Shown here in pieces: positions 2,728 to 62,171 of a stretch of DNA of 64,000 bases. The notes under the pieces are model-generated. The model made no database searches and was not told the DNA's origin. It saw only the letters and a list, made by a program, of their open reading frames with translations. Origin of the DNA: an uncultured Chloroflexia bacterium (lineage in GTDB: Bacteria > Chloroflexota > Limnocylindria > Limnocylindrales > CSP1-4). The position numbers and the translations under genes were made by a program. The stretch is taken from NCBI GenBank assembly GCA_963721655.1, contig CAVRKH010000008.1, forward strand, positions 1,026 through 65,025, read 5' to 3'. Position 1 is the first letter of the stretch; each line of letters opens with the position of its first letter.

Positions 2728-4341
2728 GTGAGCCCCGCGAGCAACCCGCTCCCGATCGTCGCGATCGTGGGGAGGCCGAACGTCGGGAAGAGCACGCTCT
2801 TCAACCGGATCGTCGGCGGACGCCCCGCGATCGTCGAGGATCGCGCGCGGACGACCCGTGATCGCCTCTACGGCGACGCCGAGTGGAACGGCCGTCGCTT
2901 CGTCGTCGTCGACACCGGCGGGCTCGAGATCGACCCGAACGACCTGATCGAGGCCAAGGTCCAGGAGCAGGCGCGCCTCGCGATCGCCGAAGCGGACGCG
3001 ATCCTCTTCGTCGTGGACGCCGCGACCGGCCTGACGCCGGCCGATCAGGAGGCGTCGGAGCTGCTGCGCCGCGCGACATCACCGGTGATCGTCGCCGTCA
3101 ACAAGGCCGACAACGACAAGCGCGAGCTCGAAGGAGCCGAGTTCCACTCGCTTGGCTGGGAGGAGACCTACCAGATCTCGGCTTCGCACGGGCGCGGGAC
3201 CGGCGACCTGCTCGACGCGATCGTCTGGGCGCTGCCGCCCGAGAGCGAGCAGGAACAAGCGCGGAAAGCTCGAGAGACAGAGGCCGAGGCGTGGGCCGAG
3301 GAAGTGGCGGCCGGCAAGCTGGAGCCGTTCGTGGTCGACGAGCCCGAGGCCGACGAGGACGGCGTCGATGCCGAAAAGGAGGACGCCGGTGCAGCACGCT
3401 GGGACGCCGCGATGGCGGCCGAGGCCGACGAGCCGGCTGCGATCGCCTTCGTCGGCCGTCCGAACGTCGGCAAGTCGAGCCTCGTCAACGCGCTCCTGGG
3501 CCAGGATCGCGCGATCGTGTCCGAAGTCCCGGGGACGACCCGCGATTCGATCGACACGCGACTCGCCTGGGGCCGAAGCGAGATCGTGCTCATCGACACG
3601 GCCGGGATTCGACGCCGCGGAAAGGTCGCCAGCGGACCGGCCGCCGAACGCTATTCGACCCTCCGCGCGCTGCGCGCCATCGCCCGTGCCGACGTCGCAG
3701 TCCTCGTCATCGACGCGGTCGAGGGGCTGACCGCCCAGGACGCCCACGTGGCCGGCTACGTGCTCGAGGAGGGGAAGGGGCTCGTCGTCGCGGTCAACAA
3801 ATGGGACCTCGTCGAGGAGAAGACCGACCGGAGCTTCGACCAGTACGTGTCGTGGATCCGCGACCAGGCGCCGTTCCTCGAGTTCGCGCCGATCGTCTCG
3901 ATCAGCGCGAGGACGGGCCAGCGCGTCAGCAAGGTGCTCGAGCTTGCCGTGGACATCTGGGGGGAGCGCCGCCGCCGCGTGCCGACCGGCGAGCTGAACC
4001 GCCTGCTGGCGACCGCGACCGAACGCGTCCTGCCGGCGATGAGCCGCGGCCGGCGCCCGAAGATCTTCTACGCCACCCAGGCGGCCGTCGCGCCGCCGAC
4101 GTTCGTGTTCTTCGCGTCGGACGCGTCTTCGGTGCACTTCTCGTACCGGCGCTACCTCGAGAACCAGCTGCGCGAGGCGTTCGGCTTCCACGGCACGCCG
4201 ATCAAGCTGGTGTTCCGCGACCGGGCCAAGGTGCGAGTGCCGCGCCGCCGCAGCACGAGGTCCGGGCGAACTCCGGAGACCGCCCGGAAACCATCGCGTT
4301 CGAAGCCGGCCGCGGGCCGACGGCAGCAGGGTCGCCGCTGA
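2728..4341 (+). CDS. der: ribosome-associated GTPase Der/EngA (two GTPase domains plus KH-like domain)
   Basis: In-frame GTG at 2728 within ORF 2536..4341. Two P-loops (GRPNVGKSTLFN, GRPNVGKSSLVN). Acidic linker between the G domains and an Arg/Lys-rich C-terminal tail. Confidence 0.9.
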   Translation: MSPASNPLPIVAIVGRPNVGKSTLFNRIVGGRPAIVEDRARTTRDRLYGDAEWNGRRFVVVDTGGLEIDPNDLIEAKVQEQARLAIAEADAILFVVDAATGLTPADQEASELLRRATSPVIVAVNKADNDKRELEGAEFHSLGWEETYQISASHGRGTGDLLDAIVWALPPESEQEQARKARETEAEAWAEEVAAGKLEPFVVDEPEADEDGVDAEKEDAGAARWDAAMAAEADEPAAIAFVGRPNVGKSSLVNALLGQDRAIVSEVPGTTRDSIDTRLAWGRSEIVLIDTAGIRRRGKVASGPAAERYSTLRALRAIARADVAVLVIDAVEGLTAQDAHVAGYVLEEGKGLVVAVNKWDLVEEKTDRSFDQYVSWIRDQAPFLEFAPIVSISARTGQRVSKVLELAVDIWGERRRRVPTGELNRLLATATERVLPAMSRGRRPKIFYATQAAVAPPTFVFFASDASSVHFSYRRYLENQLREAFGFHGTPIKLVFRDRAKVRVPRRRSTRSGRTPETARKPSRSKPAAGRRQQGRR

Positions 4342-4369
4342 CGACCCGGTGCTAGACTGCGTTGCCTGT

Positions 4370-9800: not shown

Positions 9801-11702
9801 TCAGGGGGCGAGGCGCTGGTAGGAGGCGGTTCCGAAGTGTGAGATCTCGGTCGTGACCGGCTGGAGCTGCCCGGATGGGTCGAACTCGATGATGGTGTTC
9901 TCGTTGGCATTGGGACCCTTGTCAGCGTCCGCGAACGCCAGGCCGAGCAGGCGGGCGCCATCGGGCGACCAGAGCAGCTGGTACGGACTCAACCGGGGAC
10001 CGGGAACGGGGCGCGCGTTCGAGCCGTCGGCATCGGCGACCATGAAGAACGCGTTGGCATAGGAGGTGTCTGGATTCCGAACATATGCGAGGCGCGTGCC
10101 GTCCGGCGACCAGGCCACGCCATTCTCATCCTCGGCGCTGTTCGAGACGTTGCGGAGGTTCCTTCCGTCTGCGTCGACGACGTGCACGTCGCGCAGGTCG
10201 CCGACACCCCGCGCCAGGAACGCGAGCCGCCGACCGTCCGCCGACCATGTGGGCTGCGCGCCCCCGCCCGGGTTCGACCTCGAGTGACCGGACATCGTCT
10301 GTACCCGTGAGTCCCAGATATCGGGCGCAGCCTCGTGGGCGTTCGATCCATCGACATTGATGACCCACAGCGAGTCGAGCGCTTCGCCGCAACAAGTCGT
10401 CCGGTGAAAGGCGATTTGGCGGCTGTCCGGAGACCAGGCCGGATCGCCCCCGAACACGTCCGGCCCGCCGAGCCGCACCGCGCCGGGGTCGTCGATCGCG
10501 CCGATGAGGATCTGCCGTTCCTCCTCGCCGACCGGCCGAGCCGCGACCGCGACGTGACGGCTGTCCGGCGACCAGGCGATCGGACTGTTTTCGGCGAGCC
10601 CTTCGATCACTTGGACGCGCTCGCCACCGTCGGCCGGCATCACGAACACGTCGAACGAGAAGTCCGGCTGCTGCGATTCGAAGGCGATCAGCGTCCCGTC
10701 CGGGGAGTAGGCGGGGAGGGCCTCGAACTCGGGCCCCGAGGTCAGCTGGACCAGCCCTGAGCCGTCGGGGTTCGACGCGAACAGGTCGCCGTTCGCGTCG
10801 AAGGCGATCAGGCCCGGCTTCGCGAGACCGAACGGAGGTGCGGGCCTGCGCGACGAGCCGATCACTGCCAGCACCGTCGCAAGCGCGATCAACAGCAGGA
10901 CGACGGTCACCACTGCGACGACCCTCGGGCTGAGGCTCGCGCGGTTCACCAACCGCCGCGGCCGCCACCGATCGGCGACGAGCAGGCGCGGCCGCTGCCG
11001 GGTCGACTCGACGCCAGCCAGCGCGGCTTCGAGCAGCCCGTCCGGGGCCCGGCCGACGGCCTGCTCGTCGAAGTAGACCCGGAAGTCGCGGTCGAGGTCG
11101 CGCTGGGTGGTCATCGCATCGCTCCCGTCGCGAATCCGCTCGCTGCGGCGTACGTCGGCGTCCAGCTCCGCGCGCATCGCGGCCGTGGCGCGATGGAGGC
11201 GCGACTTGTAGGTGCCGGTCGGGATGTCGAGCATCCGGGCCGCCTCGTCGTCCGACAACTCGAGGTAGTGGTGGGCCACGAGCACCGCTCGGTGCTCGGC
11301 GCTCAGGCCGCGAAATGCCCGGTGGATCGCGTCCCGCGTCTCGAGTGTCCGCGCCGGGTCCGGCGCGCTGTCCTCGACCGCCGGCAGGATCTGTCGCAAC
11401 GCGACCTGCCGCCGCTCGCGCCCGGCCGCCCGGTAGACGCAGCGGACGAGCACCCGGTCGAGCCAGGCCCGGAAGCTGTCCGGGTCGCGGAGCGAGCGCA
11501 GGTCGCGCCACGCCGCGATCAGGGCCTCCTGGACGGCGTCCGAGGCAAGGTCGGGGTCCGCGAGCATGAGCTGCGCGAGGTTGTAGAGCTGGCCGATCGA
11601 CGCGGCCGCCAGGACGCCGAAGGCGTCCCGGTCGCCTCGTTGTGCCCGCTCCACCAGATCCCGCTGCACGCTCGCAATTGCCTCCGGCCTGCTGCTCCGC
11701 AC
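9801..11702 (-). CDS. single ORF joining an ECF sigma-70 factor, a linker, one TM helix and a TolB-like PD40 beta-propeller
   Basis: Uninterrupted 633-codon ORF. Sigma regions 2 and 4 are present (AVQEALIAAWRDLRSLRDPDSFRAWLDRVLV.. IPTGTYKSRLHRA). Internal Met at 11114. TM segment VVAVVTVVLLLIALATVLAVI. PD40 blades (YSPDG.., WSPDS.., WSADG..). Likely start GTG 11669 or 11702. Confidence 0.75.
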   Translation of the reverse strand: MRSSRPEAIASVQRDLVERAQRGDRDAFGVLAAASIGQLYNLAQLMLADPDLASDAVQEALIAAWRDLRSLRDPDSFRAWLDRVLVRCVYRAAGRERRQVALRQILPAVEDSAPDPARTLETRDAIHRAFRGLSAEHRAVLVAHHYLELSDDEAARMLDIPTGTYKSRLHRATAAMRAELDADVRRSERIRDGSDAMTTQRDLDRDFRVYFDEQAVGRAPDGLLEAALAGVESTRQRPRLLVADRWRPRRLVNRASLSPRVVAVVTVVLLLIALATVLAVIGSSRRPAPPFGLAKPGLIAFDANGDLFASNPDGSGLVQLTSGPEFEALPAYSPDGTLIAFESQQPDFSFDVFVMPADGGERVQVIEGLAENSPIAWSPDSRHVAVAARPVGEEERQILIGAIDDPGAVRLGGPDVFGGDPAWSPDSRQIAFHRTTCCGEALDSLWVINVDGSNAHEAAPDIWDSRVQTMSGHSRSNPGGGAQPTWSADGRRLAFLARGVGDLRDVHVVDADGRNLRNVSNSAEDENGVAWSPDGTRLAYVRNPDTSYANAFFMVADADGSNARPVPGPRLSPYQLLWSPDGARLLGLAFADADKGPNANENTIIEFDPSGQLQPVTTEISHFGTASYQRLAP

Positions 11703-11732
11703 GATAGGGGACGCGAATACCGCTTTCGTTCC
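11701..11732 (-). promoter_or_regulatory. candidate ECF-type promoter upstream of the sigma ORF
   Basis: Minus strand reads GGAACGAA-N15-CCCTAT about 30 nt upstream of GTG 11669. Same bipartite spacing as the two plus-strand copies. Confidence 0.35.
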
Positions 11733-11740
11733 ATTTTCTG

Positions 11741-11828
11741 GGCCGGGCGCTGGCGGCGGCGTCCAGTGGAACGAATCGACCCCACGTCATCCCTATAGGT
11801 CGGCAACGGGCCGCCGACGATGGAGCGA
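11741..11828 (+). promoter_or_regulatory. ~88-nt direct repeat copy 1, containing GGAACGAA-N15-CCCTAT and a GTCGGC/GCCGAC hairpin
   Basis: Near-identical to 12349-12433. GGAAC is at 11768-11772. Confidence 0.45.
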
Positions 11829-11839
11829 CGGCAGCGGCC

Positions 11840-12338
11840 AGCACGAGATCGGCGACCTGCCCTATGGCGATCCGAACGTGTCACCCGACGGCGAGCACGC
11901 TGCTGATGCTCGGCTTCGCAGGACGACGACGAGCGCCAGCAGGCGCTCGTCACGGCCAGCATGTCGGGGGGCGACGTCGAGCGGATCACGTCGTTCGCGC
12001 TCGACGCCGCGGGCAAGAGCGACTGGGCGCCGGACCGTCGCCGCGTCACGACGAGCGACAACGCGAACATCCCCGAGCTGTCAGCCAACGTTGTCACGGT
12101 GCCGGCCGACGGCGGCGAGCCGTTCCATGTCACCGAGTACAGCGACCCCGCCGTTCGGGCGTACGTCGGCGGCTACTCGCCGGATGGCAACTGGATCGTG
12201 TTCCGCCTCGAAGACCACGGACAGCACGCCCTGTGCCTGGTGCGTCCTGACGGCACGGGGCTGCGCACGATCATGCCCCTCTCGGACTTCCGGCCCCGAG
12301 GGATCGACTGGGGTCCCCCCGCCGTGCGATCGAAATAG
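11840..12338 (+). pseudogene. PD40 beta-propeller fragment (C-terminal remnant, several frame changes)
   Basis: PNVSPDGEH.. is in the frame of ORF 11878, and LLMLGFAG in the frame of ORF 11864. The rest is ORF 11961..12338 (YSPDGNWIVFRLED..LVRPDGTGL). No intact N-terminus. Confidence 0.4.
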
Positions 12339-12348
12339 ACCTCGGCGC

Positions 12349-12433
12349 GGGCCGGGCGTCGGCGCGTCGAGTGGAACGAATCGACCCGACGTCGTCCCTA
12401 TAGGTCGGCAGCGGGCCGCCGACGATGGAGCGA
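12349..12433 (+). promoter_or_regulatory. ~88-nt direct repeat copy 2, about 80 nt upstream of the 12514 gene
   Basis: GGAAC at 12373-12377, CCCTAT 15 nt later. The sequence is otherwise almost identical to copy 1. Confidence 0.45.
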
Positions 12434-18204: not shown

Positions 18205-20057
18205 ATGTCCAGCCTTCGTGACCGCACATCTCGCTTCGGCGTCCTGGCGGCCCTTGGTGCCACGTTCGCTCTTGGCGCGTCGACCGTGCTGGCGTCGTCG
18301 CCAGGCGTCGACGTTCGGCTCTCGAACGACTTCCCGGACGGCGGCTACGTGAGCGCCGACGACATCGCCGGGCTTCCGCATTACTCCGACGACACGCTCG
18401 ACGAATGCTCGCGCGCCCGAGGGCGCCAGAACGAACCCGCCCTCGCGATCAATCCGCGCGACAGCCGGGTCATGATCGGATCCGCGAACGATTACTGCGG
18501 AACGTTCAACGACGGCGATGACGACGACGGAGCGCCAATCGCGTCCGGCCCCATCTGGCTCGGCTACTACCGCTCCGAGAACGCGGGCGAATCCTTCGTC
18601 AGCTCGCTGGTCCCGGGATATCCGGGCGACACGTCGACCCTGGGCCAGTTGGCCAGGATTCGAACGGCGAGCGCCGGCGATCCAGTCGCCGCGTGGGACG
18701 CCGACGGCCGCGTGTTCATGGGCGCCGAATCGAGCGACGACCCCGCCGGCTCGAAGAAGACGTTCGGCGACGAGTGGGTCGCCAGATACGTCAATCCCGA
18801 CGGACCCGATGGCGACACCATCAACGACGGCAGCCGCTTCGCCGGCTCGGTCGTGGTCGCCAAGGGGTCCTCCGCGCCGAACCTGCTCGGCAAGTTCCAC
18901 GACAAGACGGCGATCGAAGCCGACCGCACGGACACCTCGTGCCGCGGCAACGTGTACTTCGCGTGGTCGCGCTTCACGGGCAACGGCGACACGGCGGGTG
19001 GGCATCTACTTTGTCCGCTCGACCGATCACGGCGTCACGTTCTCGCAGCCGATGAAGCTGACCGCTGGCGTGCACGACGTCCAGCTGCCCGAGATCTCGA
19101 TCACCGGCAACGGCCACGTGTACGTGACCTACCGACAAATCGAGGACAGCGGCCACCAGGTCGACAGCGTCGGGGTCGTGAAGTCGACCGACTGCGGCAA
19201 GACCTTCTCGAGGCCGGCGACGATCACGAACGTCGCCGCCATGGGCCTGACCGACGCCCTGCTCGGGGGCGGCAACGCCCGCGACTGCGGGGACGGGGTC
19301 GGGACCGGCTGCGAGAGCGGGTACACCTTCTTCCGCGCCGACACCGGTCCGCGCGCCACCGCCGACCAGGCCGACACCAATCATGAATGGGTCTACGTGG
19401 CCTACGAGGCGATCGTCCCGGGCACGGAGGTCGACACGGGCACGACCTTCGGCTGGGCAGACGAGCAGGGTGCCGGTGGCCAGTCGGCCGTCTACTACGT
19501 TCGATACGACGGCGCGGCGAACACCCACACGACGCCTGAACGCATCTCGCCCATCAGTGACGGCCAGCAGCTGTACCCGGACCTCGCCGTCGACGACGGC
19601 GTCGTCCATGCGCTCTGGTGGGACACCCGAAACGACGCGAACAACGACGCCACGTCGATGCTCGTGCGACCGCCAGGCAACGACGCGGACGGCAACGTCG
19701 GGCCGTCGTTCGACGTGTACGCGGCCACCCGGCCCACGGACGGTGGCTCGTGGACATCCGACGTGCAACTGACCGACTTCACCTCCAATGGCCAGTGGGA
19801 GCAGTTCGGGGGCCGGACGGTCCCGTTCGGTGGCGACTACCTGCTGGATCGATTCGCAGGACGGCACGACGTTTGGGACGTGGACGGATTGGCGGAACAC
19901 GGTCCCCGGCACCGACCTTCGCGAGGAGGAGGAGGACGAGACCGGGGCGGACGTGCTCCAGTGTCGGTTCGACACGGGTGACGGCGTCATCTCCGGCGAC
20001 ACGTGTCCGCGAGACGGCGGGCTCGACCAGGACATCTACGGCGACGCCGCGCCGTAG
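18205..20057 (+). pseudogene. secreted BNR/Asp-box (sialidase-fold-like) protein, two frame changes
   Basis: Signal peptide MSSLRDRTSRFGVLAALGATFALGAS (ORF 17929 frame). Asp-boxes STDHGVTF and STDCGKTF (ORF 18518 frame). C-terminus lies in ORF 19788..20057. Breaks near 18985-18995 and 19840-19850. Confidence 0.6.
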
Positions 20058-23132: not shown

Positions 23133-23346
23133 ACCGGAACGCATCCGGAACTGGCGTTTTGACGTATCTCCATGTGTCCGGGTCAGATCCGGCCGACCAT
23201 CGCACCCTCCTGGGGGTTCGGGATCCCGCGGCAATCCCTCTGCCGCGGGGTCCCGACGTCTCGACCGTCGGTACACTCGACGCGTGACAACGAGCGAGCG
23301 CGCGGCAGGATTGCCGACCGAAGGCCAGTTGACCGGCCTCGGGGAC

Positions 23347-24815
23347 ATGGACCCCGACGAGTTCCGCGCCGCGGCGCACGCGGTCGTCGACCTCATGGCC
23401 GACTATCTCGAAACGGTCGACGCGCGGCCGGTCCTGCCGCCGATCGAGCCCGGTAGCCTGCGCGGCCGATTTCCCGAGACCGCGCCCGAGGATCCGGAGG
23501 CGCTGGACGCGATCCTCGCCGACTACGGCAGGCTGGTCGAGCCGAACGCGACCCACTGGCAGCACCCGGGCTTCATGGCCTATTTCGCCTCGACGGCCTC
23601 CGGGCCCGGGATCCTCGGCGAGATGCTCACCGCGGCACTCAACCAGAACCCGATGCTGTGGCGCACGTCGCCGATCGGGACGGAGCTCGAGGGCGTGGTC
23701 GTCGACTGGCTCCGGCAGGGCGGTCGGGCTTCCGGAGGGGTTCGATGGCCTGCTGACCGATACCGCCTCCACCTCGACGCTCATCGCACTCGCGGCGGCG
23801 CGCGAGGCGGCCGGAGTCGATGCGTCGGCCGAGGGCCTTCCGGCACGGCGCGACGTGCCGCCGCTCCGTGTCTACGCCTCGGCCGAGGCCCACAGTTCGG
23901 TCGAGAAGGCGTGCATGACGCTCGGGCTCGGCCGTGCGTCGCTGGTGCGGATCCCGGTCGACGAGCGGTTCGCGCTCCGCCCGGAGTCGCTCGAGGCCGC
24001 GATCGAGGCCGATCGGGCCGCGGGCCGCCTGCCGATCGCGATCGTGGCGACGGTCGGGACGACGTCGTCGACATCGGTCGACCCCGTCGCCGCCATGGCC
24101 GACATCGCCGAACGCGAGCGGACGTGGCTCCACGTCGATGCGGCGTATGCGGGCGCGGTCGCGCTGGTGCCCGAGCTGCGGGCACCGTTCGAAGGCTGGG
24201 AGCGCGCCAATTCGATCGTGGTCAATCCGCACAAGTGGCTGTTCACGCCGCTCGACGCATCGCTGCTGCTCACGCGCCGCATGGACCGGCTCGCCGCGGC
24301 GTTCAGCCTCCATCCCGAGTACCTGCGGACGCTCGACCGCGTCGCGCCGGTCCGCGACTACACGGATTACACGCCCCAGCTCGGTCGGCGCATGCGCGCG
24401 CTGAAGCTGTGGATCCAGCTGCGCTGGTTCGGCCTGGAGGGAATCCGCCGGCGGATCCGCCATCACCTCGAGCTCGCGGCCCGACTTGCGGCGGAGGTCG
24501 AGGCCAACCCCGACTGGGAGCTGCTGGCGCCCGTCCCGTTCTCGACCGTCTGTCTTCGATGGCGACCGGCGCGCCTCGTGGGCAGGGAGCGGGACGCGAC
24601 GGTTGCCGCCGCGCTGGATGCGCGCGAACGCCGCGATCATGGATGCGGTGAACCGCTCCGGGGAGGCGTTCCTGTCGCATACGCGCCTCGACGGCCGGTT
24701 CACGATCCGCGTCGCGATCGGCAACCCGCGGACGCAGGGGCGCCACGTCGAGCGCGTCTGGGAGCTGCTCCGCGAGGCCGCGGCGACGGTCGAGGCGACA
24801 ACGGCCCTGCCGTGA
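23347..24815 (+). pseudogene. group II pyridoxal-phosphate-dependent (aromatic amino acid type) decarboxylase, two frame changes
   Basis: N-part HWQHPGFMAYFAS is in ORF 23083..24651. The middle with NPHKWLFTPLDAS is in ORF 23855..25399. The C-end ..AIMDAVNRSGEAFLSHTRLDGRFTIRVAIGNP.. is in ORF 24486..24815. Breaks near 23715-23720 and 24600-24625. Confidence 0.7.
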
Positions 24816-25413: not shown

Positions 25414-25933
25414 CTACCAGAGGCGGGGGCGGCCGAACCTCGATCGGGACGGTGCCGGCCGTGTCGCCGTGGCAGTCCGGCCGGGATAGGCGGCCGGCCG
25501 TCGCGCGAGCTCCGTGTAGATCTCCTGGCGGAACGTGAGCCCCGCGGGCGCCCGAGCGAGCCACTCGAGGTAGTCCGGGTCGTGCGCCGCGAGCTCACTG
25601 ACCGTCCAGCCGGCGTAGCGCCCGAAGCGAGAGCGTGCGCCCGCGCGGGTCGACGCCCCGGCGGGCTGCAGCAGCGGAGATCGGTCCGGTCGGCGCGGGC
25701 GGCGGCGTGCTGCCATGCCCCGCGGGCCGTTGCGTAATTCGTCGCGTGGCGTCGTACGCCAGGCGCGTTTCGTCCCGCCCGAGGACGCTCCACGCCTCGT
25801 TGAGCGCGGCCATCTTCGACCCGTCGCCCCCGAAGTCCGGGTGGTGGCGGCGGGCGAGGTCGCGGTAGGCGGCCTGGATCGCGGATCGGTTCGCGTCGGG
25901 TGAAACGCCGAGGACGGCATAATGGTCGGCCAT
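25414..25933 (-). pseudogene. J-domain (DnaJ-like) protein, one frame change
   Basis: MADHYAVLGVSPDANRSAIQAAYRDLARRHHPD is in ORF 25595..26242. The C-part FGRYAGWTVSELAAHDPDYLEWLARAPAG.. is in ORF 25414..25959. Break around 25640-25700. Confidence 0.6.
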
Positions 25934-25957
25934 TGCCCTTTGAGTCTTGGGGTGGCC

Positions 25958-27526
25958 ATGCTTCAGCTCCCATCCCCCGGAAGTCACGGGGCGCGCTCGT
26001 CCGAAGCGCGTACGTTGACGCGCCTTCCCCTGCACCCGGTCCTGTTTGCCGCGTACGCGGTCCTCTTCCTGTACGCGCAGAACCTGAGCGAAGTCCTGCT
26101 CGTCGACATCGGCGCGCCGCTCGCGCGGGCCGTGCTCGGGGCGGCGGCCGCGCTGCTCCTGCTGGCGTTGCTCTACCGCTCCCCGGAGCGCGGCGCGATC
26201 GTCGCGTCGGCCCTCGTGGTCGCGTTCTTCGCCTTCGGCCACGTCGCGTCCGTGCTCGACTCGAGGGCCTCGGACGCCGCCCAGCTCGCGGCCTGGCTCG
26301 CTGCTGATCGTGGTCGCTGCCGTCTACGCGGCGCGGGCAGGCTCGGTGGCGCGCGTGACGCGCGGGCTCAACCTGGTCGCGGTCGTGCTGGTCGTCCTTG
26401 CCGCGATCACGATCGTCCCGTATGAGGCGCAGCGGGCCGGCCGTGCCCCGGTCTCGGTGGCGGGGCCACTGACTGCCGCCTCGGGCGCGACCCATGCGCC
26501 CGACATCTACTACCTCGTCTTCGACCGGTACGGCTCGGCGGACGCGATCGAACGCCGCTTCGGGATCACCGGCAACGACCTCTATGACTGGCTGGCGTCG
26601 CGCGGCTTCCAGGTCCCGCGCCGACAGCCGCGGCGCCTACCGCGCGACCGACTTCTCGCTCGCCGCGATCCTGAACATGCAGTACCTCGACAACCTGACC
26701 GAGGAGATCGGCCGAGTGAGCGACGATCGGACGCCGGCCCACGCGATGCTCGCGCAGCACGCCGTCGGTCGGTTCCTCAAGGAGCAGGGGTACCGCTACT
26801 ACCACATCGGGGCGTGGTTCGAGGCGACGGCATCGATCCCGATCGCCGACGAGAATCTGAGCTTCGACACCACGAGCGAGTTCGAATCGGTGTTGCGCGA
26901 CACGACGATCGTGCCGGCGATCGAGCAGCTCGTCGGCGTGCAGACGCCCGAGACGACGTTCCGCGACCGCCATCGCGAGGGGACGCTGTTCGCGTTCCGG
27001 CAGCTCCACCGGCTGGCCGACGGCGCCCGGCCCGAAGTTCGTGTTCGCGCACGTGCTGCTGCCGCACGATCCGTACGTGTTCCGTGCCGACGGGTCGGTC
27101 ATCCCCGAGGAGGAGTCGAAGCGCGAGGAGGAGAAGGACCTGTACCGAGGCCACCTGGCGTTCGCCAACGCGAACATCAAGTCGATCGTGGACGACCTGC
27201 TGTCCGGGCCCGACGACGAGGATCCGATCGTCATCGTGCAGGCCGACGAGGGCCCGCTGTTCTGCCGCAGCGTCGACTGCCCGGAGGAGAGCGTGGAATA
27301 CGCAGCGACCCGCTTCGGGGTGCTGAACGCCCTGTACCTGCCAGGGTTCGACGGCCAGCTGCCGGCAACGTTCAGCACGGTCAATACGTTCCGGACGATC
27401 TTCCGCGAGTACTTCGGGGCGGACCTGCCGGACCTGCCGGTCCACAGCTACTCATGGCCGGACAACGACCACATCTACGACTTCCGCGACATGACCGACC
27501 TTCTGGAGCAGCGCGACACGCCATAA
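25958..27526 (+). pseudogene. membrane-anchored sulfatase/LTA-synthase-like (alkaline phosphatase superfamily) protein, three frame changes
   Basis: TM region is in ORF 25922. It continues in ORF 26310 (..DIYYLVFDRYGS..), ORF 26494 (..YYHIGAWFEAT..) and ORF 27041..27526 (FAHVLLPHDPYVF..VIVQADEGP). Breaks near 26300, 26620 and 27030. Confidence 0.55.
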
Positions 27527-46082: not shown

Positions 46083-47414
46083 TCACGAGATCTCGGTGTG
46101 CTGTGCTGATCCACGAACTCCGGCCAGATCATCCTGGGACGAGGGTTGGGGACAGCTCACTTCGAGATACCAGTCCGCGCTCGTTGGACTGGGGGGTCGA
46201 GCCGCCCGCCACGGAGCGCCGTTGCCATCGCCGGCGACACGGAGGGCTCGTGTTCGCACGCGAGCGCGGCGTCGGCATCTGTCCCGCCTGCGACGGACCA
46301 TCGTACGCCGACGACAGTCGACAGGGGTCGTACAGCCCGCTGCGCTGTCGCCGTAGCCGATCCCTGAGGACCGTGCCATCGCCGGAGCAACGAGGCCGTG
46401 CTGCCGCAGCACGTTGACCATCTGTCCGCGGCGGCGCGACGTCGCGATCGCCGCCGACCGGGTCGAGCAGGCTCCGACTGCCACCACCGGTCGTCCCCGG
46501 TCAGGAGCTCGAGCAGTCACTCGCCAGGTCGACGCCAGCACGTGCCATCGGCGTGCACTAGCCACGGTCCGGACGCCGTCAGTCCGGTGCCCGGCGTAGC
46601 CGTCGACCACGTCCGACTGCAGGTCGCACGAGCGGTCGTGCACCGACGTCCGCCGATCGGAGCGCATCGCGCAGCTCACGTCGTCGACAGCTCGGCGGTC
46701 GCGGATCCCGACCGGAGTCGTGGCCGCCCGACGCCTGCCGCAGGCGCGACGGCATGGCGCGATCCCGGCATCGCCGAGGCGGACGTCCACGTGACGCGAG
46801 TCGCGCTGCCGCGATCAGCTCGCCAGCGTCCGCGATCGATCCGCGGTACGATGCGTCGACACGCTGCAGGACCGGCTCGGACGAGCGATGTCGGGTCAGG
46901 TCCGCGACCGGCGTCGACTGCGTGCCGGACGTCGGCCGTCCTCTTCAGACCGCTCGATGGCCGCCACCACGAGCACCCGGCCATCAGGAGCCGCACCGCG
47001 GCCGTGAGAGCGGGCGTGCCCATCGACCCGGTCGGGATCCAGACACGTCGGACCCGCGACAGGGATCGGACTTGCGGATGGTGCGCGACTCGCTCGGGGA
47101 CGTCGCCTGGCGATGCCGTGGCGACCGCAATCACCGATGGTTCAGGCACAGGCGGGACGACGGTCGGCAGCCGCAGAAGCCGGAGCCCGCCGCCAACGCC
47201 CCGCCGACGAGCACAGGGCTGCGGCCGCGAGAAGCGTGATGCCGCGGCCCCGGCCGAACCGTCGGGCTGGGAAGGTCCTGGTCCAGCCGGGCCGCTGGCG
47301 CAGAGTCCGGGCGCGATCCATGACCGTGGCGTGGAACCCCGCCGGCGCGCTCGCGGGCGCTTCGGTCTGGAGCCACTGCTCCAGGTCCCGTTCGAACTGC
47401 GCGTTCGGGTTCAT
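46083..47414 (-). pseudogene. membrane-anchored partner of the ECF sigma at 47411..47968, with Kelch-like repeats, many frame changes
   Basis: ATG 47414 overlaps the sigma stop (ATGA). MNPNAQFERDLEQWLQ..RQRP is followed by TM-like LLAAAALLVGGALAAGSG in another frame. Fragments such as PDGRVLVVAA and VAGGTDADAAL are scattered over all three frames. The 3' limit is uncertain. Confidence 0.4.
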
Positions 47415-47968
47415 CGGGCCACCTCCACGGCGCCCACGGCGGGTCGCTCATCGGCGTCGAGGGCCGCCCGCATCGCCTGCGTCGCCCTGCTGAGACGGGA
47501 TTGCATCGTGCCGAGCGGGATCGCCAGCGCCTCGGCGGACTCGGCCAGCGAGAGGCCGAGGTAGTGGTGGAGGACGATCACGGCCCGCTGCTCTGGCGAC
47601 AGGCGCTGGAAGCCCCGGTCGAGCTGGTCACGCACGGCCACGGCGCGCTGGGCGTCGGGCGTCGTCGGCTCCAGCGTCGCGTCGAGGGCGAGCTCGACGA
47701 CCGCCCGCTGTCGGCCCCGTTTCGCGGCGCGGTAGCAGGCACGGACGAGCAGTCGATGCAGCCAGGCGTCGAACCGGTCCGGGTCACGCAGACCGCGTAC
47801 GTCGAGCCAGGCTTGGAGGAGCGCATCCTGCACGGCATCGGCGGCGTGCTCGTCGTCGCGGAGGATGAGCCGGGCGGCCCCGAAGAGCCGATTGGTCGTG
47901 CCGACGGTCAATGCCGAGAAGGCATCGAGATCTCCCCTCTGCGCCCGAACCACGAGGTCTCGCTGCAT
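47411..47968 (-). CDS. ECF (extracytoplasmic function) sigma-70 factor
   Basis: MQRDLVVRAQRGDLDAF.. AVQDALLQAWLDVRGLRDPDRFDAWLHRLLV.. IPLGTMQSRLSRA. Confidence 0.85.
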   Translation of the reverse strand: MQRDLVVRAQRGDLDAFSALTVGTTNRLFGAARLILRDDEHAADAVQDALLQAWLDVRGLRDPDRFDAWLHRLLVRACYRAAKRGRQRAVVELALDATLEPTTPDAQRAVAVRDQLDRGFQRLSPEQRAVIVLHHYLGLSLAESAEALAIPLGTMQSRLSRATQAMRAALDADERPAVGAVEVAR

Positions 47969-58660: not shown

Positions 58661-59821
58661 ATGAGCGATCAGGAGCAGGTGCCCGAGACCCTGGCGGTCT
58701 TCGTCCTGGATAACGGAGCGGCGGCGAAGCGCCTCCTCGAGGCGGTCGACAAGATCGACGAGGTCAACGACAACGTGCAGATCGTCGACGCCGCGATCGT
58801 CGATCGGACGAAGCGGCGTGGTGCCGTCAAGGTCCACCAGACGCGGGACCGGGGGGCATTGAAGGGCGGCGTCCGTGGCACGGCGATCGGGGTGGTCGTG
58901 GGCACGATCATCGCGGGCCCGGCGGGAGCGGTCGTGGCCGGCGCGGCCGGCGGGCTCCTCCACAGTCTCCGCAGCCGCTTCCACGACATCGGCATCGACG
59001 ACAAGTTCATGAAGCAGGTCGCGAAGGAGATCGAGAAGGGCAAGAGCGCCCTGTTCGTGCAGTACACGGGCACCTGGGCCGCGTCGATCGGGTTGGTCGA
59101 GCAGGCGATCCAGGCCGAGAACGCCCTGCTCATCACGAGCACGCTGCCCGCCGAGACCGCGGCTGCACTGAGGGCGCTGGTCGAGCCCGCCGCCGAATCA
59201 CTGGGTGGCGACGAGGTGGTCGCCGACTTCGAGATCGAGGTCGAGGAAGCCCCGGAGGAGGAGGCCGCGCCGGCAGAGGAGGCCGCCCCTGTGGCAGCGG
59301 CGGCCGGCGACGACCTGACCCAGCTGGTCGGGATTGGACCCAAGGCAGCGGGTGCCTTGACCGCGGCCGGGATCGCGACCTACGCCGCGCTGTCCGAAGC
59401 GAACGAGCCGCAGATCCGCCGAGCACTCCACGATGCCGACATGACGCCACCGGGCAACGTGTCGACGTGGCCCATGCAGGCATCCCTCGCCAGCAAGGGC
59501 GACTGGCAGGGCCTGATGAAGCTCAACGAGAAGCAGCGAGCCACTGCAAAGCCAGCCGCACCGCGGACTGACGCTGCCGCCGCGGCTCCGCCCGACGACC
59601 TGACCCAGATCAACGGCATCGGTCCGCGGATCTCCACGATCCTGAACGAGGGCGGGATCACGACCTACGCCGACCTGCAGCGCGCGAACACCGGAGAGCT
59701 GCGCCAGATCATCGCGGTCGGTGGAGCCCTGCCGCCCTCGAGCCTCGAGAGCTGGCCGACGCAGGCCTCCTACGCGGCGCGCGGTGATTGGTCAGGTCTG
59801 GCGACCTACAACCGCCGCTGA
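58661..59821 (+). CDS. DUF1269-like glycine-zipper membrane protein fused to two helix-hairpin-helix repeats
   Basis: ATG 58661 after GAGGAG. ..GGVRGTAIGVVVGTIIAGPAGAVVAGAAGG.. is followed by an acidic linker and 2 x (DDLTQ(L/I)(V/N)GIGP...W(P)(M/T)QAS(L/Y)A(S/A)(K/R)GDW). Confidence 0.65.
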   Translation: MSDQEQVPETLAVFVLDNGAAAKRLLEAVDKIDEVNDNVQIVDAAIVDRTKRRGAVKVHQTRDRGALKGGVRGTAIGVVVGTIIAGPAGAVVAGAAGGLLHSLRSRFHDIGIDDKFMKQVAKEIEKGKSALFVQYTGTWAASIGLVEQAIQAENALLITSTLPAETAAALRALVEPAAESLGGDEVVADFEIEVEEAPEEEAAPAEEAAPVAAAAGDDLTQLVGIGPKAAGALTAAGIATYAALSEANEPQIRRALHDADMTPPGNVSTWPMQASLASKGDWQGLMKLNEKQRATAKPAAPRTDAAAAAPPDDLTQINGIGPRISTILNEGGITTYADLQRANTGELRQIIAVGGALPPSSLESWPTQASYAARGDWSGLATYNRR

Positions 59822-59872
59822 CATCGCACGGTCCCACGCCCGGGTCGAAGGGCCCGGGCGTGGGACGAGGAT

Positions 59873-60272
59873 TTGCCTGTGGCGAAAACGATCGTCAACA
59901 CCCCGGACGCCCCCGGGTCGGCGTCTCACGGCACGTTTCCGTACAGCCAGGCCGTGATCGCGGGCGGGCTCGTCTTCGTCAGTGGCCAGGGCCCCTTCGA
60001 TCCCGCGACCGGGTCGATCGTCGGTTCGACCATCCAGGAGCAGACCCGGCAGGTCCTGCGCAACTGCGACGCCATCCTCCGCGCCGCAGGGAGCTCGATG
60101 GACAAGGTCGTGAGCGCGACCTTCATCCTCCGCGCACCCGGAGGACTTCGCCGGGATGAACGAGGAGTGGGCTCGCTGGTTCACGACCGATCCGCCGGCT
60201 CGGCAGGGCGCCGCGCATCCCCTGGACATCGAGGGGTTCCGGATCTCGATCGCGCTCGTCGCCGAAGCCTGA
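59873..60272 (+). pseudogene. RidA/YjgF family protein, one frame change
   Basis: ..YSQAVIAGGLVFVSGQGPFDPATG.. is in ORF 59873..60331. The expected end DFAGMNEEWARWFTTDPPARQGAAHPLDIEGFRISIALVAEA* is in another frame. Break near 60135-60140. Confidence 0.65.
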
Positions 60273-60327
60273 GCGACATGAGACCGGCCCCCGTCAGGGA
60301 CAGGGACCGGTCTGAGCAACGGGAGCG

Positions 60328-61490
60328 CTAGCCGCCGAGGCTGGCCGGGAGCGAGATCTCGCCTTCCTCGACGGGCACGAAGCCCCCATTCACGACCTCT
60401 TCGTCTCGGAATGGCATTGACGAATGCCGCGCAGCCTGCGCCCGCGGGCGACGACGGGTCCTCGAACCAGAGGATCACCTGCTGGGGTGAGCCGTCGCGG
60501 ACGATGACTGCGGACCGCGTGCCGACCGCCTGCCCTTCGGATGTCGACTGGATGATCTCGCCTCCAAGGATCCAGGTCGTGTCATCGAACATTCGGGAGC
60601 ACTCGAGCCCGATCGTGAACCGGTCTGATGCGATGGCGACGGTTGCCGTTCCGGCAAGCCGCGAGCCGATCGCCGACGCATCCGCGTTGACAGTTGCGCT
60701 CTGGTCCCCGAGGGGGAACGTGACCTGTCCGCTGACCGGTGTTGCAGCGCTGGGCGGCAGCGTGATCCCGCCTTCCTTGACTTGCCCGATCATGTCCTGA
60801 CCTTCAACGGCAGAGTCCGGAATATTCCTGACGAACTGCGCGCAGTCATCCCAGGTTCCTTCCGCCTGCCCGTAGAGATTGACCTGCTGTGGCGAAGTGT
60901 CGCGGACGGTCACGGCCAGCCATTGTCCGACCGGCCCCCCTCCACCCGAGGATTCCTCGACCGCACCAGCAAGGAACCAGGTCTGGTCGTCGAACTGACG
61001 CGCGCATTGGAGCCCGACCGTGTTTTCGCCGTCACCGACATCGCCTTCGCTGACATACGTGATCACGGCGCTCCCGGAGAGTCCGGTGATGGTGTCTCCT
61101 GCGACCGCAGTACCCAGGGTGAGCCGTCAGCCAGCGCATCCATGACGACGGTGATCTCACGGTCGGCGTCGAACGTGAATTGCCCGGTGACCGGACTGAG
61201 CGTGGCCGAAGGGGCGGGTGAGCTGGTTTCGACCGGCACACCGACGATCGCGTCACCGGGCAGGAATCGAGCTCCCCACCACAACCGCGATGAGAACGAC
61301 GGCCGCAACGGCCGCCAATCTTGATGAACGCATTCATTGTCTGGGACCTCCACGGCGACCACCTGGATCGCCGCTGGGGCGTCGAGGGCAGCTCGGACAA
61401 CACGGCATCCAGGACGCGGTCCGGGATCCCATTCGAGCCAGCCTCCAGCCAGGACCGGACGATGCGGTTGGCGTCGCGTTCGGAGTTCAT
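60328..61490 (-). pseudogene. membrane-anchored partner of the ECF sigma at 61487..62039, about five frame changes
   Basis: ATG 61490 overlaps the sigma stop. MNSERDANRIVRSWLE..PQRR. The TM segment (AAVAAVVLIAVVVGSS), FLPGDAIVGVPVETSS.. and two repeated domains (..GLQCARQFDDQTWFLAG.. / ..GLECSRMFDDTTWILGG..) alternate between three frames. Confidence 0.5.
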
Positions 61491-62039
61491 TGGGCTACCT
61501 CCCGCGCCACCGGTCGCGCGTCGGCGTCGAGGGCCGCGCGCAATGCACGCATCGCGTAGAAAAGTCGGGATCGAACGGTGCCGACGGGAACGCCGAGCGC
61601 CTCGGCGACGTCGACGAGCGAAAGGTCAAGGTGGTGGTGCAACACGACGACTGCGCGGTGGTCGACCGACAGCCGCCGGAACGCACGCTCCAGCTGGTCG
61701 CGGTCAGCGACGGTCGCGATGTCATCGGAAGCGGATGATTCGTCGAAGTGCATGACGCGGAGGTTCGGCGCCAGGCGCCGAGTCTTCTTCACCTCGGAGT
61801 AGCACGCACGGACGAGCAGGCGGTAGGCCCAACCGTCGAAGCGTGCGGGATCGCGAAGCTGTGGGAGGTCTCGCCAGATGGTCGAGCAGCGCCTGCTGCG
61901 TCGCATCGTCGGCGAGGTCGACGTCGCGAAGGATCCGGTGAGCGATGGCATGCAGCCGGTTGCCGATGACGACGGCGAGGCTCGCGAACGCCCCCTCGTC
62001 ACCGTGTTGCGCCTGCACGACCAGCTCGGTGGTGTCCAC
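61487..62039 (-). pseudogene. ECF sigma-70 factor, one frame change inside region 2
   Basis: VDTTELVVQAQHGDEGAF..DDATQQALL is in ORF 61722..62078. ..IWRDLPQLRDPARFDGWAYRLLV..VPVGTVRSRLFYA is in ORF 61487..62368. Break near 61875-61880, judged by alignment to the two paralogues. Confidence 0.7.
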
Positions 62040-62171
62040 GCCGCTCCCTTGATGAGCGCCCGGCCAGTCCGGGTGCATCTATAGGTGTATGGGAGCCGGG
62101 GCAGGCTGCGCGACTCAATCTGTTCCAAACTGCCCGGCAACGGGGTATGCGACACGAGGAACTGAGGGCGC

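Follow-up and report, generated by a model that had tools for sequence, protein, structure and literature searches.

An apparent fusion of an ECF sigma factor with a PD40 propeller membrane protein in a soil Chloroflexota contig is most likely due to one extra base at an ATGA-coupled gene pair

In the RpoE-RseA and SigW-RsiW operons, the gene of a group IV sigma factor with only regions 2 and 4 is followed by that of a protein that crosses the membrane once, its N-terminus lying in the cytoplasm and its sensor domain on the extracytoplasmic side. Canonical ECF/anti-sigma operons also have overlapping stop and start codons, and the ATGA overlap implies co-translation. Naturally fused ECF proteins, namely IutY (ECF243), SCO4117 (ECF52), ECF48, ECF53 and, with WD40-like C-terminal repeats, ECF57, have also been described (PMC8999054). 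The locus analysed here lies in a window of 64,000 nucleotides from a contig of an uncultured Chloroflexia bacterium (CAVRKH010000008.1), and it resembles the operons in gene content, predicted membrane topology and stop/start overlap. As read in the contig, it is a single ORF of 633 codons at 9801-11702 on the minus strand, listed with a GTG start at 11702. Its features are as follows.

9801..11702, minus strand: fused ORF, 633 codons from GTG 11702 and 622 from the likely true start GTG 11669 (ORF list, sequence, orthologue starts)
11115..11669, minus strand: ECF sigma gene, region 2 at ~11409-11594 and region 4 at ~11181-11333; without the extra base 185 aa, ending in VRRSER(I/F)ATGAMR and a stop (Pfam, NCBIfam, PDB, reconstruction)
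11133..11136, minus strand: site of the single extra base, reading G-A-T-T, one base more than in orthologues, which brings sigma into the partner phase (DNA alignments, BLASTN gap lists)
11122..11126, minus strand: Shine-Dalgarno-like GGGAG, 7 nt upstream of the partner ATG; GGAG/GGGA kept in close orthologues (alignment with invariant G76 G77 A78)
11111..11114, minus strand: ATGA junction, with the partner start ATG at 11114-11112 and the old sigma stop TGA at 11113-11111, now out of frame (sequence)
9801..11114, minus strand: partner gene, 437 aa, predicted cytoplasmic N-terminus, TM helix and extracytoplasmic propeller (orthologues, AlphaFold2, Foldseek, Pfam)
10929-11114, minus strand: partner N-terminal segment with the conserved motifs DR..F..Y, APDGLL and TRQRP; RQRP at 10989-11000
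~10854-10928, minus strand: hydrophobic partner TM helix, partner residues 63-87
~9804-10817, minus strand: predicted extracytoplasmic TolB-like PD40 beta-propeller (Pfam PD40, AlphaFold2, Foldseek)
11710..11732, minus strand: weak ECF-type promoter-like GGAAC-N14-CGTC, ~40 nt upstream of GTG 11669 (pattern search)

An earlier note, made from the letters alone, described the ORF as running uninterrupted from sigma regions 2 and 4 through Met197, the motif RQRP and a TM helix into a PD40 propeller, and the ORF list, Pfam and AlphaFold2 confirmed this description. Pfam placed Sigma70_r2 at residues 37-98 (E 7.5e-10) and Sigma70_r4_2 at residues 124-174 (E 2.5e-9), and detected PD40 with an E value of 1.7e-27. 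The real start of the sigma gene is probably GTG 11669, from which the product begins MQRDLVERAQ as in the orthologues, and the fused ORF would then have 622 codons. Exact-product look-ups with the 633-aa ORF, the 622-aa ORF and the sigma factor of a second, paralogous module of the window returned no identical protein on record. The 633-codon frame is present in the sequence, but it is owed solely to one extra base upstream of the stop/start overlap; as this base directly causes the ORF, whether an ORF of such length could arise by chance is beside the point. We consider the fusion ORF most likely to be a consensus indel error on an ordinary coupled operon of an ECF sigma factor and a putative membrane anti-sigma factor from soil Chloroflexota.

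Since 11702-11114 = 588 = 3 x 196, ATG 11114-11112 is in-frame codon 197, and the next base is A 11111; the coordinates thus bear out the observation that ATGA is present at 11114-11111 with the sigma frame in phase with the ATG. The BLASTN gap lists comparing the coding sequence of the window with each of the orthologous loci L011, L012 and L013 contained exactly one indel that was not a multiple of three and not compensated nearby, and the list for L014 placed the same extra base in the window. DNA alignments demonstrated that the base is absent from six orthologous loci (the four above, L015 and L025) and is private to this contig. In a reconstruction, dropping any one base of 11134-11136 gave a sigma factor of 185 aa with a tail, ATGAMR, identical to that of L025, and the TGA of the restored gene overlapped the partner ATG. 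The alignments with the six loci therefore uphold the proposal that a single-nucleotide indel fused the sigma gene and its partner, but not the position proposed for it, about 45 nt upstream of the old stop. Because LDADVRRSER is conserved in the orthologues, the frame of the ORF itself is the ancestral one upstream of 11136, and the indel thus lies at 11133-11136, ~20 nt (7 codons) before the ATGA. Similarly, the alternative frame at the sigma end does read YAAASGFATGAMR followed by a stop, as had been stated, but the ancestral sigma tail comprises the last six residues only.

The inserted base belongs to no run longer than two (TT), and inspection of 11111-11140 revealed neither a slippery heptamer nor a long homopolymer. 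Programmed recoding, in which ribosomal frameshifting or transcriptional slippage would give separate and fused products, has in its favour only that the ATGA overlap sets two frames side by side; the orthologues make two proteins without recoding, and we regard this explanation as extremely improbable. Programmed frameshifting was discarded, since the junction has no slippery sequence and the DNA of the window itself encodes the fusion. The GGGAG at 11122-11126 may function as the ribosome-binding site of the partner, as its spacing and conservation suggest. The lineage has a G+C content of 69%, and in close orthologues no stop interrupts the partner frame over 90-750 nt ahead of its ATG; with the frame open there at high G+C, any net +1 insertion upstream of the partner ATG gives such a fusion.

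The sigma part is, by its sequence, an ECF (group IV) sigma-70 factor with regions 2 and 4 only. It scored 58 bits against NCBIfam TIGR02937 (sigma70-ECF), above the cut-off of 42.9, and its best NCBIfam match, TIGR02983 (SigE-fam_strep), reached 99.5 bits, below the cut-off of 141.55; SigH, SigW, RpoE and SigL were its matches among PDB sequences. The sigma orthologues are 185-196 aa long, and 112 of the 120 best sigma homologues fall within 180-204 aa. The window contained 12 matches to the pattern GGAAC-N13-18-CGTC, where 8.95 were expected; as this is no enrichment, the promoter-like motif upstream of the sigma gene is insignificant alone and a weak lead. A scan for sigma-70 promoters and terminators detected nothing near the locus.

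By its sequence and modelled fold, the partner belongs to the PD40 (WD40-like) beta-propellers. It scored 95 bits against Pfam PD40 (cut-off 20.9), AlphaFold2 modelled the propeller with a pLDDT of mostly 85-94, and the best Foldseek matches in the PDB were TolB structures (E about 1e-14) and S9-peptidase propellers. The score against TIGR02800 (TolB) was 91 bits, far under the cut-off of 343, with the propeller part alone matching, and the locus is surrounded by the sigma factor and unrelated genes; the partner does not appear to be the TolB of a Tol-Pal system. Partner residues 1-105 had no Pfam match even at E <= 5, a profile of 15 partner N-termini searched against PDB sequences gave chance matches alone (E > 4), and AlphaFold2 predicted two helices with low pLDDT in the N-terminal segment. 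Residues 1-62 contain neither Cys nor His, whereas zinc-binding (ZAS) anti-sigma domains have His/Cys, and the sequence does not place the partner among class I/ZAS anti-sigma factors. The partner is a putative cognate membrane anti-sigma factor or sensor. The same N-terminal motif and TM helix precede different ectodomains in the three paralogous modules of the window and in 10 further MAG loci, and the proteins carrying them are always encoded directly downstream of an ECF sigma gene. The motif APDGLL...TRQRP, which seems to match no described anti-sigma domain, is the sole, mildly new aspect of the operon. As a separate observation, the sequence MTTQRDL of partner-type proteins resembles MQRDLV of the sigma factor.

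The closest intact partner orthologues (P0001-P0010, P0012 and P0013) share 74-91% identity with the partner, are 436-441 aa long and begin at the same Met. In the gene calls of L011-L014, L025 and JGI sample 3300041967, a sigma gene of 185-188 aa overlaps its partner by 4 nt. The stop/start overlap occurs in all 15 family loci compared (32-91% identity), as ATGA or GTGA in 14 and as TGATG in one. None of the 150 best-scoring proteins out of 1.84 billion representatives spans sigma to propeller, and at least 13 distinct family representatives align their own residues 1-4 to residue 197-198 of the query. Exact searches of genome and metagenome contig collections with the junction DNA patterns, T or TT allowed, gave no match, nor did an exact search with a downstream 35-mer. 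Contig scans with a single partner protein (genome and metagenome) found only distant PD40 proteins, and the relatives were found by an alignment-based scan. A look-up of P0013 yielded no record.

These results bear on the suggestion of the earlier note that the ORF could encode a genuine one-polypeptide, membrane-tethered sigma factor. An evolved protein of this kind, in which the ECF sigma factor, a membrane anti-sigma segment and a PD40 sensor are joined and the sigma factor is freed by regulated proteolysis, as in IutY (ECF243) or SCO4117 (ECF52), is plausible in principle, because fused ECF/anti-sigma proteins and WD40-like ECF extensions have been described (PMC8999054). Furthermore, a distant relative, P0053, has a continuous sigma-TM-double-propeller ORF of 980 aa (32% identity) that is found in short-read assemblies and has no ATGA remnant. 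However, neither an orthologue with an intact frame nor, among the 150 best matches, any family representative is fused: every close intact orthologue has separate sigma and partner genes, and the orthologues restore the stop at 11113-11111. The conserved overlap, the invariant start Met of the partner and the dependence of the fusion on a single private base also speak against an evolved fusion, which we judge very unlikely. By its sequence the locus does not appear to join the ECF groups with a fused C-terminal anti-sigma/TM extension, in which the single polypeptide is conserved.

The closest relative, L014, has 94-98.7% nucleotide identity and synteny over ~21 kb. L012, a short-read style scaffold, also has no extra base. 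Synteny upstream of the sigma gene differs, since a divergent gene of 179-195 aa present in the orthologous loci is missing from the window. Elsewhere in the window, the gene for a PLP decarboxylase is frameshifted at ~23718, with Pyridoxal_deC profile positions 1-89 and 104-373 in different frames, and a gene of 443 aa that is intact in L014 is distributed over three frames at 18718-20054. A GC3 hidden-Markov frame map was too coarse alone and was used only where protein-level evidence agreed. The partners of both paralogous modules are also broken by frameshifts.

47411..47968, minus strand: module 2 sigma gene, sharing its TGA with the partner ATG at 47414 in an overlap; a frameshift within the TM helix disrupts the partner
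61032..62050, minus strand: module 3, with the sigma end TGA at 61487-61489 and a partner N-terminal fragment ORF at 61032-61490 from ATG 61490

The ATGA overlap reported for these two modules (47411/47414 and 61487/61490) was found in both. The partner of module 3 contains at least two frameshifts, and its ectodomain goes on in an ORF at 59792-61066. Among related sequences, P0021/L015, P0274 and P0217 are sigma-partner read-throughs that continue into out-of-frame junk, and every sister assembly shows its own set of private indels in the same genes, a pattern typical of technical noise. The sister contigs are named contig_N in Flye style, and the family relatives found in GTDB come from the Microflora Danica MAGs, a set assembled from Nanopore reads only, with Flye and Medaka (PMC12313526). 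The contig is not uniformly noisy, because no frameshift interrupts the 1.3 kb of the partner gene here, while L014 and L015 contain a great many. We infer a technical rather than a biological origin of the insertion, and the source of the extra base is probably a noisy, long-read assembly.

A recent, real frameshift private to this strain, which would replace the last 6 residues of the sigma factor with a 7-residue linker (IRDGSDA) and the whole partner, probably in addition to free partner made from the internal ATG, would also account for the uninterrupted ORF with its intact partner part, the retained GGAG before the ATG and the ancestral tail that the old frame still encodes. As ATGAMR is still encoded there, any real insertion event would be very recent; the fusion would not be an evolved design but would have no effect, do slight harm or mark a stage on the way to a pseudogene. 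However, L014, whose flanks reach 98.7% nucleotide identity, has no insertion, the many further frameshifts in enzyme genes would not be expected to be tolerable for a free-living bacterium, and the differing private indels of the sister assemblies affect the same genes. We therefore consider a private mutation unlikely, though less so than an evolved fusion. The private insertion, the other frameshifts and the conserved GGAG 7 nt before the ATG favour instead the other possibility raised in the earlier note, namely that this is one more indel of the contig and that the internal ATG still serves to make the partner.

Considering these results, we propose the following scenario, in which an indel error was introduced into the consensus sequence of an ordinary two-gene operon. 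The first gene would encode an ECF sigma factor of 185 aa and end on a TGA that overlaps the ATG of the second gene, allowing translational coupling through ATGA. The second gene would encode a single-pass membrane protein of 437 aa with a cytoplasmic N-terminus, one TM helix and an extracytoplasmic propeller. The N-terminal segment of the partner may hold the sigma factor at the membrane, and the propeller may sense an envelope cue that leads to sigma release, both the signal and the release step being presumed. Seven codons ahead of the ATG, the base added at 11133-11136 would shift the sigma frame into the partner frame and thereby create the one 633-codon ORF. The organism almost certainly makes two separate proteins.

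The operon beneath the apparent fusion is a real but ordinary module of an ECF sigma factor and a membrane partner of soil Chloroflexota. As stops in other frames are rare at high G+C, one indel close to an ATGA overlap mimics a convincing multi-domain fusion, which calls for caution; public protein collections already contain several junk fusions of these two genes (P0021, P0274 and P0217). It is improbable that the extra base is real and that the strain has a membrane-tethered ECF sigma-PD40 fusion, a snapshot of how fused ECF proteins arise from ATGA-coupled pairs by one indel. P0053 could be an older, fixed example of fusion in the same wider family. If the fusion were true, it would be a new member of a class already described, the fused ECF/anti-sigma proteins.

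The paralogous modules, with their common N-terminal motif and different ectodomains, add to the likeness of the locus to canonical ECF/anti-sigma operons. For the ~45 conserved N-terminal residues of the partner (APDGLL, TRQRP), which presumably bind the sigma factor, comparison detected no similarity to class I/ZAS anti-sigma domains, Pfam families or PDB entries. The partner resembles TolB/PD40 proteins and S9 peptidase propellers in its PD40 repeats and best Foldseek matches, but differs from them in having no TolB N-terminal domain, Tol-Pal context or peptidase domain and in that an N-terminal TM helix serves as its anchor and its gene accompanies that of a sigma factor. The ORF of the contig resembles the chimeric ORFs of long-read assemblies at high G+C in its private single-base indel and in the many frameshifts of the contig, although the indel lies outside a long homopolymer and the window itself is only probably of long-read origin. 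With the fused ECF proteins (IutY, SCO4117, ECF48, ECF53 and ECF57) it shares the order of sigma factor, linker, TM helix and extracytoplasmic domain. However, ECF48, ECF52 and ECF53 have a ZAS zinc finger, which this locus does not have, and in the fused ECF groups the fusion is conserved group-wide, whereas here a single contig has it, owing to one extra base.

The ORF that the earlier note had described as an ECF sigma factor, membrane anchor and PD40 propeller in one reading frame was found exactly as stated at 9801-11702 on the minus strand, with a GTG start and 633 codons in the ORF listing of the window, and it scored above the cut-off of the ECF superfamily model TIGR02937 (NCBIfam). 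Its Pfam matches were as follows.

Residues 37-98 of the fused ORF: Sigma70_r2
Residues 124-174 of the fused ORF: Sigma70_r4_2
Fused ORF: PD40 repeats (E 1.7e-27)

The in-frame ATG at 11114-11112 is codon 197 (11702 - 11114 = 588) and is followed by A at 11111, giving ATGA, and the RQRP motif is encoded at 11000-10989. In both paralogous modules of the window, modules 2 and 3, the TGA of the sigma gene overlaps the ATG of the partner, the membrane gene downstream of it (47411/47414 and 61487/61490, respectively), again in agreement with the earlier reading. The alternative frame before the junction in the fused ORF reads YAAASGFATGAMR and then a stop.

The suggestion that this ORF is a genuine one-polypeptide sigma factor was not supported, because a search of the whole ORF against 5.8 billion proteins returned no fused orthologue and the overlap of separate genes was kept in all 15 loci having both. 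The closest relatives with intact frames (P0001-P0010, P0012, and P0013; 74-91% identity, 436-441 aa) aligned to the final 69% of the query alone, which is the partner portion beginning at Met197, and all started at the equivalent Met. When 1.84 billion representative proteins were scanned in full with HMMER, the 150 best hits included no protein spanning sigma to propeller, and the alignments of at least 13 distinct family representatives began at query residue 197-198 and at residues 1-4 of the representatives themselves. Furthermore, 112 of the 120 best sigma homologues were 180-204 aa long. Five orthologous loci (L011, L012, L013, L014, and L025) carry a sigma gene of 185-188 aa with a 4-nt overlap with the partner gene, and a JGI contig showed the same arrangement according to gene calls alone. 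A further 10 Chloroflexota MAG loci with both genes emerged from an alignment-based scan of GTDB genomes; most of these MAGs are Microflora Danica entries labelled 'uncultured Chloroflexia', and one is Candidatus Limnocylindria. In the 15 loci (32-91% identity), the sigma frame was always +1 relative to the partner frame, and the stop/start overlap was ATGA or GTGA in 14 and TGATG in one.

In DNA alignments of the junction with six orthologous loci (L011, L012, L013, L014, L015, and L025), the window carried a single additional base relative to each of them, in GAGCGG-ATT-CGCG at 11133-11136. Compared with the three cleaner loci, L011-L013, this was the sole coding-sequence indel that was neither a multiple of three nor offset by a nearby opposite indel, and the identical extra base was visible against L014, the closest relative. 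Deleting one base at 11133-11136 restored a 185-aa sigma factor ending in LDADVRRSER(I/F)ATGAMR, with a tail like those of the orthologues (LATGAMR in L025 and VAMGAMR in L014). The earlier inference of a single-nucleotide indel upstream of the ATGA was thus correct as to the indel itself, though its position is approximately 20 nt (7 codons) rather than approximately 45 nt upstream. The 'AAASGF' stretch read in the alternative frame does not derive from the ancestral sigma, because the conserved frame upstream of the insertion is the ORF's own (LDADVRRSER).

The alternative offered earlier, that the fusion is one more indel of the kind found along this contig, gained support from the private nature of the extra base and from further frameshifts. 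Frame-disrupting indels were present in all three sigma/partner modules, breaking the ORF in two of them, within or just past the TM helices of the module 2 and 3 partners, and joining the ORFs in the third. An intact 443-aa gene of L014 corresponded to three plus-strand frames in the window at 95-99% identity (18718-18987, 18974-19843, and 19842-20054), with shifts near 18987 (window +7 nt) and 19843 (window +1 nt). A PLP-dependent decarboxylase gene at approximately 23335-24815 (+) was also split over three frames, Pfam Pyridoxal_deC positions 1-89 lying in one and 104-373 in the next, with a break at approximately 23718 and another shift near 24551. The downstream gene for a sulfatase-like membrane protein, at approximately 25904-27526 (+), apparently occupied four frames, of which Pfam backed the last piece alone, and weakly.

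The closest relatives, ENA assemblies with contigs named contig_N, and the window are separated by many private 1-nt indels, including where identity reaches 98.7%. A GTPase gene, probably Der/EngA, lies within a 490-codon ORF at 2883-4355 (+) in the window, whereas L014 (17998-18837) has a truncated version of 279 aa, whose gene call matched Pfam GTP_EFTU, MMR_HSR1, and KH_dom-like; each assembly therefore has indels of its own that the others do not share, which points to technical noise more than to inherited pseudogenes. L015 has frameshifts of its own, including an additional A, private to it, located 38 nt upstream of the insertion in the window, and its product P0021 (L015 3001-4065) is a sigma-partner read-through continuing into out-of-frame junk, as are, independently, P0274 and P0217 in public collections. 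Such read-through 'proteins' look like a recurrent annotation artefact of the gene pair. In close orthologues, 90-750 nt of open partner frame precede the partner ATG, so any net +1 insertion there yields a fusion ORF. The relatives of this family in GTDB are MAGs built from Nanopore reads alone, using Flye and Medaka (PMC12313526). On this indirect evidence, the fusion is most probably a consensus indel error; we consider the main alternative, a real private mutation, improbable.

The sigma factor is of the standard ECF type, with SigH, SigW, RpoE, and SigL among its best PDB sequence matches. An AlphaFold2 model of the partner (18-sequence alignment, mean pLDDT 70.6) gave two short low-confidence N-terminal helices (residues 4-15 and 27-37), a TM helix (63-87), and then a well-predicted beta-propeller, with TolB and S9 peptidase propellers as top structural matches. 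TolB itself was ruled out, with TIGR02800 far under its cut-off and neither the TolB N-terminal domain nor a Tol-Pal context present. The cytoplasmic N-terminus of the partner carries the conserved motifs DR..F..Y, APDGLL, and TRQRP, with Q40, R41, and P42 invariant, and a weaker version of this pattern precedes different ectodomains in distant MAG loci and in the other two modules.

47414 downwards (-): module 2 partner motif, ..ERDLEQWL..AP..RQRPGW, frameshifted at the TM helix
61490 downwards (-): module 3 partner motif, ..RIVRSWL..IPDRVLD..TPQRRSRW, frameshifted at the TM helix

The module 3 ectodomain is an internally repeated domain other than PD40, with no match in a Pfam search. Because of this modular design, the invariant adjacency to an ECF sigma gene, and the stop/start overlap, we infer that the partner is a membrane anti-sigma factor or sensor, whose N-terminus would sequester the sigma factor and whose propeller may sense an envelope cue leading to its release. 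Searches of Pfam and, with a sequence profile, of the PDB detected no resemblance between the N-terminus and known anti-sigma domains, and the ZAS His/Cys motif is absent from it. A GGAG conserved 7 nt upstream of the partner ATG suggests independent initiation, in line with the earlier proposal that the partner is still made from the internal ATG.

Upstream of the sigma gene, a 70-nt direct repeat (94% identical; 11759-11828 and 12364-12433, starts 605 nt apart) flanks a segment missing from L013 and L014, each of which has a single repeat copy. On its plus strand the segment carries the C-terminal part of a PD40-like gene (ORF 11961-12338; Pfam PD40 at E 0.018 only) and, lying beside the sigma promoter region, could reflect local rearrangement, duplication or mis-assembly. 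ECF-type GGAAC-N14/15-CGTC motifs occur at 11710-11732 (-), approximately 40 nt ahead of the probable start of the sigma gene, and at 12373-12396 (+), within the repeat and towards the divergent genes. They could be a candidate autoregulated promoter and a target promoter, respectively; the pattern was not enriched across the window (12 matches versus 8.95 expected).

In the wider family, P0053 (L038 323-3265 and L039 194-3136) is a continuous 980-aa ORF with an ECF sigma factor, a partner-type N-terminal motif, a TM helix, and two PD40/WD40-like propellers, and aligned to the window ORF at 32% identity across 91% of its length. Its DNA was identical in the MEGAHIT-style contig ERZ27248591 and the Logan contig SRR1586268, both possibly derived from the same reads, and its junction has neither a Met nor an ATGA or GTGA remnant. 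P0053 may be a genuine natural fusion. Natural ECF/anti-sigma fusions have been described as IutY/ECF243, SCO4117/ECF52, ECF48, and ECF53, and ECF57 comprises ECFs with WD40-like extensions (PMC8999054). Membership of such groups rests on a conserved fusion, whereas the fusion in the window proved not to be conserved when tested; if real, it would add a member to an already described class of fused ECF proteins.
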